IMG/VR virus record: IMGVR_UViG_2563366891_000008 | Strand: one strand, 5' to 3' | Length of the DNA: 6,847 nucleotides | Source: a virus | Lineage: Duplodnaviria > Heunggongvirae > Uroviricota > Caudoviricetes | The notes under the pieces: model-generated | Databases searched by the model: none | The model's input: only the letters and a program-made list of their open reading frames with translations | What the model was told of the DNA's origin: nothing | Made by a program: the position numbers and the translations under genes | Shown here: positions 649 to 5,802 of the stretch, piece by piece | Numbering within the stretch: position 1 is the first letter of the stretch | Layout: the number at the start of each line of letters is the position of its first letter

Positions 649-921
649 TTACCTCCAGATCCGTTGCTGGTATGTGCGGGATGGGCGCGTTGGGCGTTCG
701 GAATAAGGGAGCCTGACATAGATTATCCAGTGACGATAATCGAGGCTGAGGGCTTTCTTAATCTCGTATCCGCGTCTGCGGTAGTTATGAATTAGCCATT
801 CGGCCTGTTCTTCAGTACATGGTGGGTGTTGGTACCAGTCGGTTTTAAATGCGTGTGAACGCCGCCCATGCCGGATGGCAAGGTCGGTATCAGAATTGTG
901 AAATTTGGTTTTGTGCGCCAT
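649..921 (-). CDS. Small prophage protein (90 aa), in the position occupied by rem in Qin; alternatively the N-terminal part of a frameshifted YdfU-like gene
   Basis: ATG at 921..919 and stop at 651..649. First ~65 aa look protein-like (MAHKTKFHNSDTDLAIRHGRRSHAFKTDWYQHPPCTEEQAEWLIHNYRRRGYEIKK); the tail is R/P/S/T-rich and overlaps the open frame of the downstream gene. Confidence 0.45.
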   Translation of the reverse strand: MAHKTKFHNSDTDLAIRHGRRSHAFKTDWYQHPPCTEEQAEWLIHNYRRRGYEIKKALSLDYRHWIIYVRLPYSERPTRPSRTYQQRIWR

Positions 922-990
922 CTGTTTTCTCTGCTGGCGCAGCAGGTGTCAGGTGTTCAGGCTGACGTGCGAATTGTAAACCAGAATGCC

Positions 991-1020
991 AGAAAAAAAC
1001 AAAACCCGCCGAAGCGGGTT
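991..1020 (-). terminator. Intrinsic terminator downstream of hok
   Basis: On the minus strand: 7-bp stem (plus 1003-1009 aacccgc / 1014-1020 gcgggtt) with a UUCG tetraloop, followed by a U-tract (plus-strand A-run 991-1002). No U-tract on the plus strand, so it is unidirectional. Confidence 0.7.
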
Positions 1021-1088
1021 AAGTGCGGGTGCGTTGAGGATGCCTGACACATCAGAGGTGGCGAGGGATTTCTCCCCCGCCAGGTCTC

Positions 1089-1244
1089 TTACTCCTCAGG
1101 TTCGTAAGCTGTGAAGACAGCGACCTCCGTCTGGCCGGTTCGGATTCGTACCTCGCAGAGGTCTTTCCTCGTTACCAGTGCCGTCACTATGACGGTTAAA
1201 CAGATGACGATCAGGGCGATTAACATCGCCTTTTGCTGCTTCAT
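1089..1244 (-). CDS. hok: Hok/Gef-family type I toxin (HokD/RelF-like), 51 aa
   Basis: Hand translation of the minus strand: MKQQKAMLIALIVICLTVIVTALVTRKDLCEVRIRTGQTEVAVFTAYEPEE. It has the Hok transmembrane segment and the conserved RKDLCEV...TGQTEVAVF...AYE core. Below the ORF-track length cutoff. SD-like AAGGAG upstream. Confidence 0.85.
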   Translation of the reverse strand: MKQQKAMLIALIVICLTVIVTALVTRKDLCEVRIRTGQTEVAVFTAYEPEE

Positions 1245-1868
1245 AGCCTGCTTCTCCTTGACCTTTCGGTCCGTAAGAGGCTAATCTCTATGTGTCGCAT
1301 AGATATGGCCTCAGATTAATGTTAAGCGTCTTGCAGGACGCGTAATGTTAACTGGGGCTTTTCTCTATCTGCCTTTTGGTGTTCATGCCTGAGACAGATA
1401 GCCTCAAGCACCCGCAGTCATTCTACTTAACTCCCGTTACCTCGCCAATATAAAATCAATCAGAAAGGCGATCCATAAGAACAACAGCAAGACAATAAAT
1501 TGCCATTACAGCTGCAATAGCCAGCGCACATTTGAGAACCAGCACGACAACCTCCTGTATTGGACGTACACCAGTCCTGATAAATATGAGGCTGTCTCAT
1601 CATTGATGAGATACAACTATTGGGTATAGTTTCTGTGATTTTGTTCTGTAGAAATGGAACACAACAACCAGTCACCACCAGCACTTCTTTAAATACGCCA
1701 AGTCCGACGCAAGCTAACCTTCTAGTCCGCTTTGAGCGAAAAGCAGACTGTCACGCGTTGAAGTTAATTGTATTACTTAGATAAACACTATCATTTTCCT
1801 GACGTTAAGTTGTATCTTTGATAGGATTAAAAAACGTATAGATAGCTTATGCTACTGAGGGAATAAAA

Positions 1869-2678
1869 ATGACGAAAATTAGTGAACGATGGAAGCACAA
1901 TGGCATTACTGAAGGTTATTGCAATATTTGTGGGAAATATGGCTTGCTCACAAAAGATCATGTTCCTCCAAAGTGCGCCATAACCTTAGGCCCTGTTTTG
2001 CAGAAAACAGTTAGCGAATTTTTTGGTATTCAGGAACCAGTTAAACCATTAAATGCTAAAAATGGCTCTTATTTCAGAACCATTTGCAGCCACTGTAACA
2101 ATAAGGTATTAGGTGGGCTCGATGTTGCAATTGAAAATGTAACAAAGTCCTTTAAAGAACAGTTAAGTCGATATATGAATGGTATGAATGTATATCCATT
2201 CATTAGAATACCTTTTGATAGCATATCTTTCACTAAGGCTATGATTGGGCACGTGCTATCAGCAACTTCAGTTGAAGATTGTAAAAAAGAACCCGTAGAT
2301 AGCCCCTTCTATACACCTTTAAAGGATTATGTTTTGGGTAAAAATTCAAGTTTTGAGGAAACTCATGATATTTACTACTGGTTTTACCCACACAGAATGC
2401 ACATATCCGCTCAAAGTGTAGCATTTATGAACGAAGGACATGTGGCATTTATTTGTGCTTTACATTTTTTTCCTATCGGTTTTATTATCACAATGAAAAA
2501 TGAAGGAACATACCCTGCCCACTCTACAAAATTAGAACTTGAAGATAAATTCCTTACATTTAATATGACCTCTATAAATTATGAGTATACGACATTTCCA
2601 TTTGTAAATCTTAAGGGAAACCAAATGTATGCGATAAGCAACGGTCATACTTGTGTGAGTTATCCAATAATTAAGTGA
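1869..2678 (+). CDS. 269-aa protein with N-terminal HNH-like (beta-beta-alpha-metal) zinc-finger nuclease motif and unknown C-terminal domain; AT-rich cargo gene, candidate defence/abortive-infection nuclease
   Basis: Long ORF with SD GAGGG 7 nt before ATG 1869. Motif C18-x2-C21 ... D30-H31-V-P-P ... C73-x2-C76-N-N-K79 fits the HNH pattern apart from a ~40-aa insertion. GC is visibly lower than the flanking phage genes (rough by-eye estimate high 30s vs mid 50s percent). Opposite strand to neighbouring phage genes. Confidence 0.7.
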   Translation: MTKISERWKHNGITEGYCNICGKYGLLTKDHVPPKCAITLGPVLQKTVSEFFGIQEPVKPLNAKNGSYFRTICSHCNNKVLGGLDVAIENVTKSFKEQLSRYMNGMNVYPFIRIPFDSISFTKAMIGHVLSATSVEDCKKEPVDSPFYTPLKDYVLGKNSSFEETHDIYYWFYPHRMHISAQSVAFMNEGHVAFICALHFFPIGFIITMKNEGTYPAHSTKLELEDKFLTFNMTSINYEYTTFPFVNLKGNQMYAISNGHTCVSYPIIK

Positions 2679-2731
2679 CGGCTAAATCATACAATCTACG
2701 CATGTTCACTTTCTACATATACCATCTATAA

Positions 2732-2757
2732 TGTCCGCTGTTGGCACAAAGCGGACA
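2732..2757. terminator. GC-rich hairpin between convergent genes; possible bidirectional terminator or cassette boundary
   Basis: 8-bp perfect stem tgtccgct (2732-2739) / agcggaca (2750-2757) with a 10-nt loop, lying between the stop of the + gene (2678) and the stop of the - gene (2825). No clean U-tract on either side. Confidence 0.35.
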
Positions 2758-2824
2758 ACCACGCTAGCTCTACCCTGTGCCACAAAATGTCAATTAATAC
2801 CTGAACTAATGCTCTTTAATTTCG

Positions 2825-3241
2825 TCACTTCAATAAATACCGAACATTTCCCTGATAAAATTCCAGTATGCGCTGCATAACTTCGCTCTGACGACACTCG
2901 CGACAAATTATATTCTGTCGTCTGTTGTAACGGCGTATTTCGCCATCTAGCAATGAATAAATCAGGTCAGGATCGCTCTTCTTTTTCACTGCCGCTCTCG
3001 ACATTTTTTTGCGGGCTTTTCCCCAGTCCTTACGAGCCTGCTCCGAAGGAAATATTCCATGTCCTGAACTATATATTGCGCCACTAACTACCAGCTCTTT
3101 CGCCAGAACTTCTATCAGATGTCTCGTAGCCCCGGTTTCATTTTCCAGTTGTTTACGCGTTTTTCGCCCATCTCTGCGTACCAGTTCCACAATGCGCGCC
3201 TTCACTTCTTCCCGCAGTTCGGGAGTAAAAACTTTTGCCAC
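2825..3241 (-). CDS. 138-aa basic protein with HTH-like N-terminal region and C-terminal CxxC; function unknown
   Basis: ORF with GTG start at 3241..3239 preceded by strong SD AGGAGG (4-5 nt spacing). Immediately downstream of the O-like gene in the same operon. The 3' end is more AT-rich than the 5' end. Confidence 0.7.
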   Translation of the reverse strand: MAKVFTPELREEVKARIVELVRRDGRKTRKQLENETGATRHLIEVLAKELVVSGAIYSSGHGIFPSEQARKDWGKARKKMSRAAVKKKSDPDLIYSLLDGEIRRYNRRQNIICRECRQSEVMQRILEFYQGNVRYLLK

Positions 3242-3278
3242 AAGCCCTCCTGAAAATTACCCCATGACCTGAAATCTG

Positions 3279-4349
3279 TTACCCTCTGAATCCCGGCGGA
3301 ATTTCGGTGTCCGGTTCAGAAATATGATTAACACAACGCTGGTTGTTCGTGCCGCTTACCGGGAGCAACCAGGGGTTTTCAAAATTCCGGTCCGGTCCAA
3401 AAAACGTCGTCGCTCGCTGAACAAATTCCGTTCCCGTTTTCCCGGTAGCAGCCAGGTATCTTGTGTAACGCCTCACACCATCCAGCATGGCCTCTGGTGG
3501 CACCCCCTCGCGTAATCTGGCCTTCCAGGCACTGAAAGCGGATTTTTTCGGGTTTGCCCCGGCTCGTAACGGGTATTCCCGCCAGACCTGTTCGAACACA
3601 TCCGGATAATCCACTCGTCCCACAGGCTGCCCGATGTTTTCCGGGACTACCCGATCGGCTTCCCGCTGAATGGCGGAATCGGCTTCAGGCTGCTGCAGTT
3701 GGTGTGATTGCTCCGACCCTGCGGTCATCGCCTGCTGCACAGCGCCCGAATCGGCTTTCAGCGCATACGCTGAATCGGCTTCCGGTGTCGTGCCTGCGGG
3801 CTGGCCAGGAGTGACGGTCTGAACATCCCCTACATGGTTCGTGGCGTTTTTTACGCCATGGACCATAGTGTTTTGATCTTCTTTATCTGTATCTCTATCT
3901 GTATCTTTATCTGTCGTGACTCGTCGTGACATGTGCGTGACATTTCGTGACGCGCCGTGACAATCGCCATTTTGTTCCCGCTTTCTTTCCCTCTCACGCT
4001 GCGCCCTCTTGCGCTCTGCCGGAGATTTTGCGGTTTGCGAAATATTGCCGTTGTCCTCTTTAAGCACCTGGCGTTTTTCCCATCCAGTGATTAAATCACC
4101 ATCAAGTACCCGCCCCTGCATCGTCTGCAAAATTGAATCAATTACCTCTTCTGTCACGTCGAGCGCACTTGCCAAATCTTCTGTCGTGACATCAATGTGA
4201 CCTCGCGTGACATTTCGTGACGCGCTCACCAGGAGGTGGATATACACTGCCATCACTGTTGCAATTGGTTGCCCTGACACCCTGGCAATTGTTCGCCACT
4301 TAGGGTCATTTGGCATGTCATGCCATAATCTGAGCCAGGCGTTAGCCAT
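3279..4349 (-). CDS. Phage replication initiator (lambda O-like functional analogue; possibly YdaU-like) carrying internal origin iterons
   Basis: Long ORF; probable start ATG 4349..4347 with SD GAGGTGAG (the track's 4355 is an upstream GTG). Sits after the cro/cII-like genes. Contains two clusters of 10-bp-periodic CGTGAC repeats plus AT-rich hexamer repeats, as the lambda ori lies inside O. Confidence 0.8.
   Translation of the reverse strand: MANAWLRLWHDMPNDPKWRTIARVSGQPIATVMAVYIHLLVSASRNVTRGHIDVTTEDLASALDVTEEVIDSILQTMQGRVLDGDLITGWEKRQVLKEDNGNISQTAKSPAERKRAQRERERKREQNGDCHGASRNVTHMSRRVTTDKDTDRDTDKEDQNTMVHGVKNATNHVGDVQTVTPGQPAGTTPEADSAYALKADSGAVQQAMTAGSEQSHQLQQPEADSAIQREADRVVPENIGQPVGRVDYPDVFEQVWREYPLRAGANPKKSAFSAWKARLREGVPPEAMLDGVRRYTRYLAATGKTGTEFVQRATTFFGPDRNFENPWLLPVSGTNNQRCVNHISEPDTEIPPGFRG
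3884..3913. repeat. Tandem hexamer repeat TATCTN x5 (AT-rich block adjacent to iterons)
   Basis: tatctg tatctc tatctg tatctt tatctg read directly from the sequence; encodes a TDKDTDRDTDK linker in the O-like protein. Confidence 0.7.
3911..3961. repeat. Putative origin iterons, cluster 1: five direct repeats of CGTGAC at 10-11 bp spacing
   Basis: CGTGAC at 3915, 3925, 3936, 3946 and 3956. Helical-turn periodicity, inside the initiator gene. Confidence 0.65.
4181..4225. repeat. Putative origin iterons, cluster 2: four (C)GTGAC repeats at ~10 bp spacing, including an exact 21-bp copy of cluster 1
   Basis: (C)GTGAC at 4185, 4196, 4206 and 4216. The 21-mer gcgtgacatttcgtgacgcgc is identical at 3935-3955 and 4205-4225. 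An inverted copy GTCACG lies at 4153-4158. Confidence 0.6.
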
Positions 4350-4420
4350 ACTCACCTCTTCTGATACCGAATCTTTTTACTCACGAGTTGCCGGAAGCGA
4401 TTCGATATGGCTATTGTCAG

Positions 4421-4846
4421 TCAATGTACTGCCACAGCATTTCCTGCCGGGCCACCACGGTTCATCTGATTGAAACCGGCGATTGCCACTGCGACAAAAT
4501 CATCAGCGTCTCTCACCAGTCGCTCCCGCGTCTCCACCAGCTCCCGAAAATAAGCTGAACTGTGGCTGCGCATTCTGGCCACCAGCAAAGGTGGCATTGC
4601 CTTTTCGATCGCTGGTAACAACGCCTGAATTTTTTCAACTGCATCAGGGGTGTCTTTCTCTACCCAGCGGAAAATTTTCTGGGTATTGCGAGCCAGGGCT
4701 TCCGGATGGCTGTCGTCATACAGTTCCGGGAACGTCATTCCCAGCTCGAAATACGCTTTGGTAATTTTCGCAGCCGGTACTTTTTCGCCGTCCGGATGCG
4801 CCCAGGCATTCATCGCCATGCGGATGTGTTCATGCTTGATTTTCAT
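4421..4846 (-). CDS. YdaT-like protein (CII-like functional analogue of Rac-type prophages), 141 aa
   Basis: Start ATG 4846..4844 with SD GGGGGG; protein begins MKIKHEHIRMAMNAW.... The ORF-track start at 4918 is an upstream in-frame ATG without SD. Overlaps the end of the cro-like gene by 17 nt. Family assignment is from memory. Confidence 0.7.
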   Translation of the reverse strand: MKIKHEHIRMAMNAWAHPDGEKVPAAKITKAYFELGMTFPELYDDSHPEALARNTQKIFRWVEKDTPDAVEKIQALLPAIEKAMPPLLVARMRSHSSAYFRELVETRERLVRDADDFVAVAIAGFNQMNRGGPAGNAVAVH

Positions 4847-5163: not shown

Positions 5164-5802
5164 ATGAGCAAGCAAACTATATCTGAACGCATAACCCAAC
5201 GTATGCATGCGCTAAACCTGAAAGGCAAAGACCTTGTCAATGGCACTGGCGCATCAAAAGGCTCCGTAAGTCAATGGATGAACGGTGGAGGAGCGCCGTC
5301 CTCGCGTTACATAAGTTCACTGGCAAAAATATTGAAAGTAAACGAAAATTGGCTTCTTAATGGAGGAGAGTTAAATACAGGTGATTCGCTTGATCTATCT
5401 TTACCGCCGATAAAAACGGTTCCGCTACTATCACTTCAGCAGGCAGCAAGCTGGAGTGATTATATGAAAAATTCCTCAATAACCTCTTGTGTGCAGCTTG
5501 TCGGAGAAATCCCGGTCAATACCTTTGCAGTTGTTCTAGAGAGTGACAGTATGTCAACATCTGGTGGGGGAGTTTCCATCCCAAATGGTTCAACAGTTTT
5601 TGTTGATCCCGATCGAACCGTACAACCAGGAAATATTGTCCTTGCCTTACCCAAAGGGACCACAACACCTGTCATTCGTAAACTGGAGATAGAAGGGCCG
5701 GATATTCTTTTAGTCCCCACGAATCCTCGCTACCCTTCAATTATGCTGGATGATCTATCTTGCATATTGGGCGTATGCTTTAAAATTCAACAAGATATTT
5801 AA
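5164..5802 (+). CDS. Lambda CI-type immunity repressor (N-terminal XRE-type HTH, C-terminal S24/LexA-like autocleavage domain), 212 aa
   Basis: HTH segment GASKGSVSQWMNG. C-terminal ...SDSMS...VFVDPDRTVQPGNIV...VIRKLE...LVPTNPRYPSI... parallels lambda CI GDSM...VDPEQAVEPGDF...FKKL...LNPQYP (Ser/Lys dyad). Divergent from the cro-like gene. Confidence 0.9.
   Translation: MSKQTISERITQRMHALNLKGKDLVNGTGASKGSVSQWMNGGGAPSSRYISSLAKILKVNENWLLNGGELNTGDSLDLSLPPIKTVPLLSLQQAASWSDYMKNSSITSCVQLVGEIPVNTFAVVLESDSMSTSGGGVSIPNGSTVFVDPDRTVQPGNIVLALPKGTTTPVIRKLEIEGPDILLVPTNPRYPSIMLDDLSCILGVCFKIQQDI

Follow-up and report, generated by a model that had tools for sequence, protein, structure and literature searches.

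Two 24-bp inverted-repeat sites delimit an exchangeable cassette in an Escherichia coli lambdoid prophage and probably belong to a recombinase-and-site cassette system

The DNA considered here, a 6,847-bp viral record of the Caudoviricetes (IMG/VR IMGVR_UViG_2563366891_000008; the whole stretch is called the window below), is the early region of an Escherichia coli lambdoid prophage of the Qin/Rac/PPompW type. Between its hok/sok locus and its DUF977 gene, one accessory gene is bracketed by two similar 24-mers, GTCCGCTTTGAGCGAAAAGCAGAC (1725–1748) and GTCCGCTGTTGGCACAAAGCGGAC (2733–2756). By their sequence, they are members of a widespread family of 24-bp inverted-repeat sites that mark the exact ends of cassettes. 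The reading preferred here, with a probability of roughly 0.6, is that they delimit an exchangeable accessory cassette in the hok/sok to DUF977 slot and would be acted on by a small tyrosine recombinase of the type called Int200 below, i.e. that they would be double-stranded recombination sites and not functional hairpins. They probably represent one instance of an undescribed recombinase-and-site cassette system. An earlier note on the window had proposed either recombination or target-site remnants or promoter-insulating and terminating hairpins typical of morons. The first option is now strongly supported, since the breakpoints of hundreds of relatives lie at or within the two 24-mers, and the second has to be abandoned.

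The coordinates that the note gave for the two 24-mers are exact, as is their identity at 18 of 24 positions in direct alignment; when one of them is reverse-complemented, 20/24 positions are identical. In a repeat search of the region, they rank first among the direct families (D1) and also among the inverted pairs (I1, 37 nt, 76%). The motif GTCCGC-N12-GCGGAC (≤1 mismatch) is present twice in the window for 0.01 expected, and none of 200 shuffles gave two or more copies. The sites of this family can be written GTCCGCT-NN-(6 bp)-NN-AGCGGAC and fall into two classes according to their centre, L (GAGCGA) and R (TGGCAC). The L-type site (1725–1748) comprises an outer, backbone-side arm GTCCGCTTT (1725–1733), the centre GAGCGA (1734–1739) and an inner, cargo-side arm AAAGCAGAC (1740–1748). 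The R-type site (2733–2756) comprises an inner, cargo-side arm GTCCGCTGT (2733–2741), the centre TGGCAC (2742–2747) and an outer, backbone-side arm AAAGCGGAC (2748–2756). On one strand, the order is always L-cargo-R. The exchangeable cassette (1740–2741, + strand) consists of an inner arm, the 269-aa cargo gene (1869–2678, +) and an inner arm; the sites lie 120 bp upstream and 54 bp downstream of this open reading frame (ORF), in agreement with the ~120 and 55 bp noted earlier.

The ends of the cassette coincide with the breakpoints observed in relatives. Among 5426 complete E. coli genomes compared with positions 1000–3400 of the window, left-flank homology stops at 1739–1748 in many genomes (most of the relatives listed) and right-flank homology begins at 2729–2734 in most of the relatives listed. 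In the same way, a 111-bp probe across the right site matches 1063 records, and most of the matches listed start at 2730–2734. An R site is found beside the DUF977 gene in 1054 of the 5426 genomes (about one fifth). In other prophages, the same two sites enclose a DUF5677 gene, two hypothetical genes, a DUF4209 gene (PADLOC PDC-S39), AbiH with a hypothetical gene, or a five-gene MFS-GGCT-LysR-DUF2254-BCCT cargo. When the E. coli loci are pooled with 120 viral contigs found with the pattern TGGCACAAAGCGGAC, an identical left flank, outer arm and centre (...GTCCGCTTT GAGCGA) leads into at least 17 unrelated continuations, and at least 21 unrelated continuations precede TGGCAC AAAGCGGAC AACCACG on the right. 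In every case, divergence starts at the inner arm, i.e. at the border between the centre and this arm. At the resolution of these alignments, the backbone is shown to keep the outer arm and the centre while each cassette brings its own inner arm, which points to an exchange at or in the central 6 bp. The dinucleotide beside the centre moves together with the flank to which it belongs (TT, GT or AA across three outer flanks of one cassette). As in the core-type sites of tyrosine recombinases, two inverted arms surround a short asymmetric centre, the recombinant joints fall in the central region and the arms are exchanged as units. In at least 10 contexts, the joint of two neighbouring cassettes is marked by an adjacent R-(4–18 bp)-L pair. 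Double sites of the composite type R-18 bp-L (66 bp), which share a conserved linker (..ACTGAGCTGAAG), lie between neighbouring cassettes in loci L149 (6922–6987) and L150 (11625–11690), and also in L035, L039, L085 and L112.

The cassette of the window is also found in an unrelated backbone. Positions 1725–2748 share 99.9% identity with positions 1879–2902 of locus L015, from the chromosome of strain B25FEP, whose flanks are unrelated to the window and not prophage-like. This match extends from the first base of the L site (1725) to just past the R-site centre; the junctions of L015, L008 and L013 all break after 2748. In these three loci, the same flank, arm and TGGCAC lead into a unit carrying int200, the gene of the small recombinase, and in L015 the order is R centre, int200, a gene for a 476-aa protein, R site, DUF2254-BCCT, R site. 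Since the R centre of L015 leads into the int200 unit, the R site of the window is the unoccupied form of the L015 site. The block shared by L016 and L015 stops at the last base of the R site that follows DUF2254-BCCT. A second pair of free and occupied sites is provided by L120 (free) and L026 (int200 unit), which also differ in that all the DNA between two R sites has been swapped; a third pair, in which the DUF2254-BCCT unit would be present or absent in one backbone, was sought and not found. As judged from such pairwise comparisons, the cassette is shown to move as a unit.

Int200 is a 200-aa tyrosine recombinase (e.g. WP_001752951.1) with a catalytic domain only. Its sole Pfam match is Phage_integrase (PF00589, E = 1.1e-17), and the closest NCBIfam models are of the Xer/integron and Fim types, far below their cut-offs (at best 53.6 bits vs 220 for XerA/integron integrase). 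Its HxxR...H...Y residues align with H244, R247, H270 and Y279 of XerD, HSMRR and GH...Y matching the box II residues; the box I arginine (LRGCD) was assigned by eye only. Int200 carries the residues that define the tyrosine recombinase superfamily and, from its sequence, looks catalytically intact. It has more than 8000 homologues of ~200 aa, with 61–95% identity, in Enterobacterales, Alteromonadales, Pseudomonas and Burkholderiales. The DNA of int200 is present in 773–970 of the 5426 E. coli genomes (~14–18%); the gene is carried by other prophages, genomic islands and plasmids, including prophage L150, in which it occupies the same hok-DUF977 slot, and an island of E. coli Nissle, in which it lies within a site-delimited array.

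This gene and the 24-bp sites occur together. Homology of the int200 unit begins at the TGGCAC centre (query positions 25–37) in all the matches listed among the ~770 E. coli genomes that carry most of this unit. Downstream of the int200 stop codon come a stem-loop, GTGCCA, NN and AGCGGAC, and then a partner that differs each time, an arrangement found in four enterobacterial and viral contexts as well as in Providencia and marine loci. Homologues from Pseudomonas and Burkholderiales (61–65% identical) have the related motif CGGCCA-NN-AGCGGCC downstream. The half-site motif is present in 16/79 downstream stretches vs 21/3836 random windows (~37-fold enrichment), and 80 int200 loci (845 kb) contain 28 full palindromic sites vs at most one in shuffles. 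The orientation of the sites relative to int200 is strongly biased (68:4), and an L-type site lies at −63 of the int200 start codon in nine loci. Polar cassette arrays such as those that characterize integrons are found in L015, L016, L149 and L150. On this genomic evidence, the sites are shown to be cassette borders precise to the nucleotide, common to prophages, islands and plasmids, and to be genetically linked to a conserved small tyrosine recombinase. The gene int200 is also carried by loci of marine metagenomes (L138–L143, Cycloclasticus-like) and of Providencia (L144–L148), where its location is between the arsenic- and the copper-resistance modules of an ICE-like (integrative and conjugative element-like) island and in smpB-adjacent islands, which suggests that the same site system also separates the cargo modules in integrative elements of organisms far from E. 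coli. YdfW/IntK, which is encoded beside a site in Qin-type prophages, was considered and proved unrelated to Int200.

Combining these data, the functioning of the system might be pictured as follows. Int200, which its genetic linkage designates as the candidate catalyst, would act on the sites of the window in trans, as it is not encoded there; alternatively, these sites would be relics. Exchange would take place in the central 6 bp. Since the L and R centres differ, the two sites should not recombine with each other and the cassette would be stable in place. Paired L × L and R × R exchanges with a second DNA bearing the same pair of sites would then swap the cassette. Units located between two R sites (the int200 unit with the gene of the 476-aa hypothetical protein, or DUF2254-BCCT) could be excised as circles, and these circles could insert into a free R site such as that at 2733–2756. 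The joint predicted for the circles of such R-R units is GCCCGCTTT TGGCAC AGGGCTGC, and their excision would leave behind a restored palindromic R site.

Several points weigh against this reading. No recombinase of the Int200 family is encoded in the window or in the 46-kb prophage of a close relative. The earlier note expected a single copy of the 24-mer at empty sites, and none was found for this exact backbone in the 5426 genomes: with the joined backbone flanks as a query, only one genome has these flanks close together and none has them joined via a single site. In this lone genome, an AbiH cassette has suffered an internal deletion that leaves both sites in place. As the outer arm and the centre are nearly invariant, the crossover point cannot be placed within the site, and any process that always cuts at the inner edge would give the same junction pattern. 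The conserved arms are separated by 10 bp vs the 6–8 bp typical of tyrosine-recombinase sites. A recognizable half-site accompanies only 20–30% of the most distant Int200 homologues, and int200 itself could be merely a frequent passenger cassette. Finally, the statistics of positions 10–24 of the R sites are biased by the pattern used for the viral scan (TGGCACAAAGCGGAC); the L sites, which are free of this selection, give the same conservation picture.

An alternative, unlikely but worth weighing, is that the 24-mers have been kept for another reason (as an operator, or as an RNA or DNA structure) and are only the sequences common to unrelated cassettes, which general or phage homologous recombination (Red/RecET-like) would swap through them. 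The backbone flanks would offer this process hundreds of bp of homology and the sites 15–24 bp; relatives of the prophage carry a RecE-like exonuclease and RusA, and the window is devoid of a site-specific recombinase for these sites. Furthermore, the promoter-like element adjoining the R site is reminiscent of the organization, a promoter with a stem-loop, of the PeSL (promoter-early stem-loop) sequences. However, exchange through the flanks gives no reason for 17 and 21 unrelated cargoes to share one starting nucleotide, for one cassette to have its ends precisely at the sites in backbones that are unrelated, or for the sites to be clustered and oriented around a conserved recombinase gene whose unit ends at a site centre. 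As for exchange through the sites themselves, an identity of 15 bp is generally a poor substrate for RecA or Red-type recombination.

It is decidedly improbable that the cassettes are non-autonomous, transposon-like elements, whose terminal inverted repeats would be the inner arm (extended in about one fifth of cases by a ~40-bp block ending in GGGAGCAGGT) and which an unidentified transposase, e.g. an HUH enzyme acting on hairpins such as those of IS200/IS605 or REP/RAYT, would have moved into a palindromic target. The ends of the cassettes are indeed mutually inverted, many of them with longer inverted terminal blocks, and the fixed L/R order on one strand resembles that of the left-end and right-end hairpins of IS200/IS605. 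Nevertheless, most cassettes lack the long terminal blocks, which are also missing at the left end of that of the window, and no target-site duplications are present. On both sides, the flanks are inverted copies of the arms, which fits a recombinase site with two arms better than a transposon end next to its target. No transposase gene recurs in the loci, whereas the tyrosine recombinase does; no HUH (Y1) transposase is annotated near the sites in these loci, where no systematic search for one was made.

The hairpin option of the earlier note, according to which the sites would terminate or attenuate transcription and keep the cargo gene, of opposite orientation, isolated from the early-right operon, is still less probable. 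It draws on the position of the R site between two convergent genes (1869–2678, + and 2825–3241, −) and on the folding of this site, which is stable as single-stranded DNA (z = −3.65; −10.8 kcal/mol with RNA parameters). Of the two stem-loops noted earlier, only the right one is a stable hairpin, with a perfect stem of 7 bp that reaches the 8 bp claimed only if the flanking T2732/A2757 pair is added; the left copy has a C/A mismatch in its stem and folds no better than shuffled sequences (z = −0.98). A terminator scan of 900–3400 reported 1003–1020 and 1502–1521 only, i.e. neither 24-mer, and no T-tract follows the 24-mers on either strand: TGTCACGC and AACCACGC come next on the + strand, and on the − strand TAGAAGGT and ATTATAGA. 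In the 84 R and 54 L contexts compared, the conserved positions are 1–7 and 18–24, corresponding to the 7-bp arms GTCCGCT and AGCGGAC (information content 1.1–2.0 bits). Pairs 8–17 and 9–16 are of the Watson-Crick type in only 32–39 of the 84 R contexts and 18–21 of the 54 L contexts, and pair 4–21 is mismatched in 30–40% of contexts. The arm variants at positions 4 and 21 (C/T and G/A) assort independently of each other, which leaves many sites with a mismatch in the middle of the stem. The compensatory changes that the stem of an intrinsic terminator should display are thus lacking; independent variation of the arms points instead to half-sites exchanged by recombination and not to a selected stem, and the conservation pattern fits a putative protein-binding site. 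In addition, the sites flank cargo genes of both orientations, and adjacent R-18 bp-L pairs exist with no gene between them. The terminator reading is rejected on these grounds (scan, folding and absent covariation). As for a chance resemblance of two short palindromes, common in intergenic DNA and here only 18/24 identical, its probability is practically nil, given an expectation of 0.01 per window and the presence of the same site at cassette borders elsewhere, in more than 130 distinct contexts: the 24-mer is widespread, as the earlier note had envisaged for a chance motif, but the location of the site family at cassette borders is not that of such a motif.

The segment between the sites is compositionally foreign, with a G+C content of ~0.32–0.39 vs ~0.5 in the flanks, and its cargo gene is transcribed from the strand opposite to the early-right operon of the phage. 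The 269-aa protein finds no match in Pfam, NCBIfam or PADLOC, and its sole assignment is to PHROG 21495, a family of unknown function; its N-terminal region has a CxxC...DH...CxxC spacing that accounts for the 'HNH-like' feature of the earlier note. By analogy with neighbouring slots that hold AbiH and PDC-S39, a role in defence is plausible. A gene of the same length (269 aa) beside int200 in E. coli Nissle was considered and is unrelated to the cargo gene of the window. At the right end of the cassette, a promoter-like, sigma-70-like element (TTCACT-N16-TATAAT, 10/12 matches; 2705–2732, +) abuts the R site and reads outward from the cassette into this site, antisense to DUF977. The 28 bp of this element and the half-site are also found beside int200 in L008, L013 and L015, and the predicted promoter is, by this comparison, a sequence that travels with the cassette end. 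In about one fifth of the cassettes, an additional block of ~40 bp (RTTGCTAnCAGC..TGTGTGAAT/TATGTTAG..GGGAGCAGGT) lies directly inside the inner arm. This block is inverted at the two cassette ends (e.g. L006 4250–4290 and 6402–6441; also L022, L034, L107 and others), a partial relic of it is present at window 2700–2732, and it may be a binding site for an accessory protein or a former site. A reading of this block, which ends in GGGAGCAGGT, as a leader or Shine-Dalgarno sequence was discarded, as no start codon lies at a fixed distance and the block is inverted at both ends of the cassettes.

The right-hand backbone of the slot begins with the gene of a Ren-like DUF977 protein (2825–3241, −; Pfam PF06163, E = 2.7e-28; PHROG 142) and the left-hand backbone comprises the hokD toxin gene (ORF 1089–1244, −; named hokD in the annotation of relatives) and the sok/mok regulatory region (1242–1413, −; Rfam sok, 106.7 bits). 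The early-right run on the − strand starts with cro and includes a YdaT-family gene (4421–4846), the gene of a replisome organizer (3279–4355) and, after hokD/sok, a DUF968 gene; cI lies at 5164–5802 (+). The best matches of the whole window in the E. coli collection reach 95.5% identity and no genome is identical. The Rfam scan reported sok, a sub-threshold isrK and noise, with nothing at either 24-mer; the isrK-like match (999–1080, −; 27.2 bits for a gathering score of 50, E = 0.008) overlaps the 3' region of hok and the terminator at 1003–1020. In the backbone stretch between sok and the L site, which is kept in many prophages, an ORF of 29 aa (1456–1545, −), preceded by CAGGAGG, encodes a hydrophobic peptide (MLVLKCALAIAAVMAIYCLAVVLMDRLSD) that could be a second small membrane peptide or toxin. 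Two clusters of CGTGAC-bearing repeats (tcgtgac, gcgtgac, ccgtgac) at 3911–3962 and 4181–4225, within the replisome-organizer gene, look like origin iterons similar to those in lambda O.

Other insertions are found near the slot in relatives. In L001 (strain EFF60), an IS5 (2217–3413) lies 8–11 bp left of the L site and duplicates window 1714–1717, and in another prophage (L007) an IS5 (6569–7549) lies directly beside the DUF977 gene on the R side. In L016, from a Qin-type prophage of strain HCP17S3_I4, a relBE-ydfV-flxA-ydfW-ISEsa1 insertion (5208–9282) is located at the start of hok, at a point equivalent to window ~1243–1258, a stretch that is found on both sides of it; hokD is thereby split from the sok/mok region. 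L016 has site copies within the annotated ydfV ORF and beside ydfW, and the ydfV copy is present in 1276 of the 5426 genomes.

Among the variable regions of E. coli lambdoid prophages, the slot from the replication genes to hok/nin is a major one, which holds AbiH, PDC-S39 and many unknown genes. If the sites are the substrates of a small dedicated recombinase, they would explain, at the nucleotide level, the exchange of accessory and defence genes among prophages, islands and plasmids, and would provide a sequence signature for delimiting cassettes and finding new defence genes. For cassette exchange, Int200 would then offer a compact recombinase of natural origin, together with two candidate heterospecific sites, and the system would be a third natural platform for cassette shuffling, beside integrons and Xer/pdif modules. 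Literature searches by topic, site sequence and protein accession retrieved no description of the sites or of the recombinase, within a searchable literature that is incomplete; the Tai defence paper mentions prophage hotspots and not these sites.

A broader proposal, to which slightly less than an even chance is given, is that of an integron-like but mechanistically distinct cassette system, in which a recombinase of ~200 aa and two heterospecific 24-bp sites would shuffle accessory and anti-phage cassettes among prophages, islands and plasmids, the window being one loaded L-cassette-R slot with a free R site. As in integrons, a tyrosine recombinase gene lies beside a primary, half-conserved site, polar arrays of cassettes are split by inverted-repeat sites, the junctions fall inside these sites and the cargo includes defence genes. 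The 59-base element of integrons is said to have been described by Stokes et al. in 1997 as composed of two 'simple sites', each with two binding domains in inverted orientation. The 66-bp R-18 bp-L double sites resemble these two simple sites, although by analogy only. In contrast, Int200 has 200 aa and no N-terminal domain, whereas integrases of the IntI type have ~320–340 aa and an IntI-specific insertion. The sites are near-perfect palindromes of 24 bp (GTCCGCT-N10-AGCGGAC) without a GTTRRRY core, whereas attC sites have 57–141 bp and R''/L''/L'/R' boxes. Also unlike integrons, the recombinase-adjacent site lies downstream of the int200 stop codon and not upstream of the gene, two heterospecific classes of sites bracket many cassettes, these cassettes may be multigenic and in either orientation, and the platform may be a prophage.

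The Xer-dependent pdif modules of Acinetobacter plasmids are also gene modules bracketed by short sites, here of 28 bp, with a XerC arm and a XerD arm around 6 bp; different replicons share the same modules, whose borders coincide exactly with the sites, and the type of site alternates from one to the next. However, the sites of the window have no similarity to dif (best local score 4/28 with the E. coli dif sequence), a dedicated small recombinase instead of the host XerC/XerD is linked to them, and their hosts are prophages and islands of Enterobacterales. The PeSL of T4-type phages and the boundary sequences of lambdoid phages are, in the same way, short conserved stem-loop sequences that flank variable accessory genes at mosaic joints. 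They are thought to use homologous recombination and carry a defined early promoter, whereas the joints are precise to the nucleotide here, the sites are not confined to phages and they are linked to a dedicated recombinase. In the R64 shufflon, the sfx sites have the crossover core GTGCCAA and only one well-conserved arm. Its recombinase Rci is also a tyrosine recombinase, and the half-site adjacent to int200 reads GTGCCA(A/G) plus one arm, a putative resemblance; however, Rci has ~384 aa, and shufflons invert segments of one gene and do not exchange cassettes. A formal parallel comes from engineered cassette exchange with heterospecific lox or FRT sites, in which a cassette flanked by sites with the same arms and incompatible centres is swapped by double exchange, with neither excision nor inversion; it differs from the present case in that it is an engineered use of Cre or Flp, whereas the arrangement is natural here and the incompatibility of L and R is predicted from their centres. 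Taken as a whole, and as far as its sequences reveal, the system fails the tests that define integrons (type of integrase, structure of attC) and Xer sites, while its mode of working is like that of integrons or of a platform of pdif modules and, in formal terms, like that of engineered heterospecific cassette exchange.

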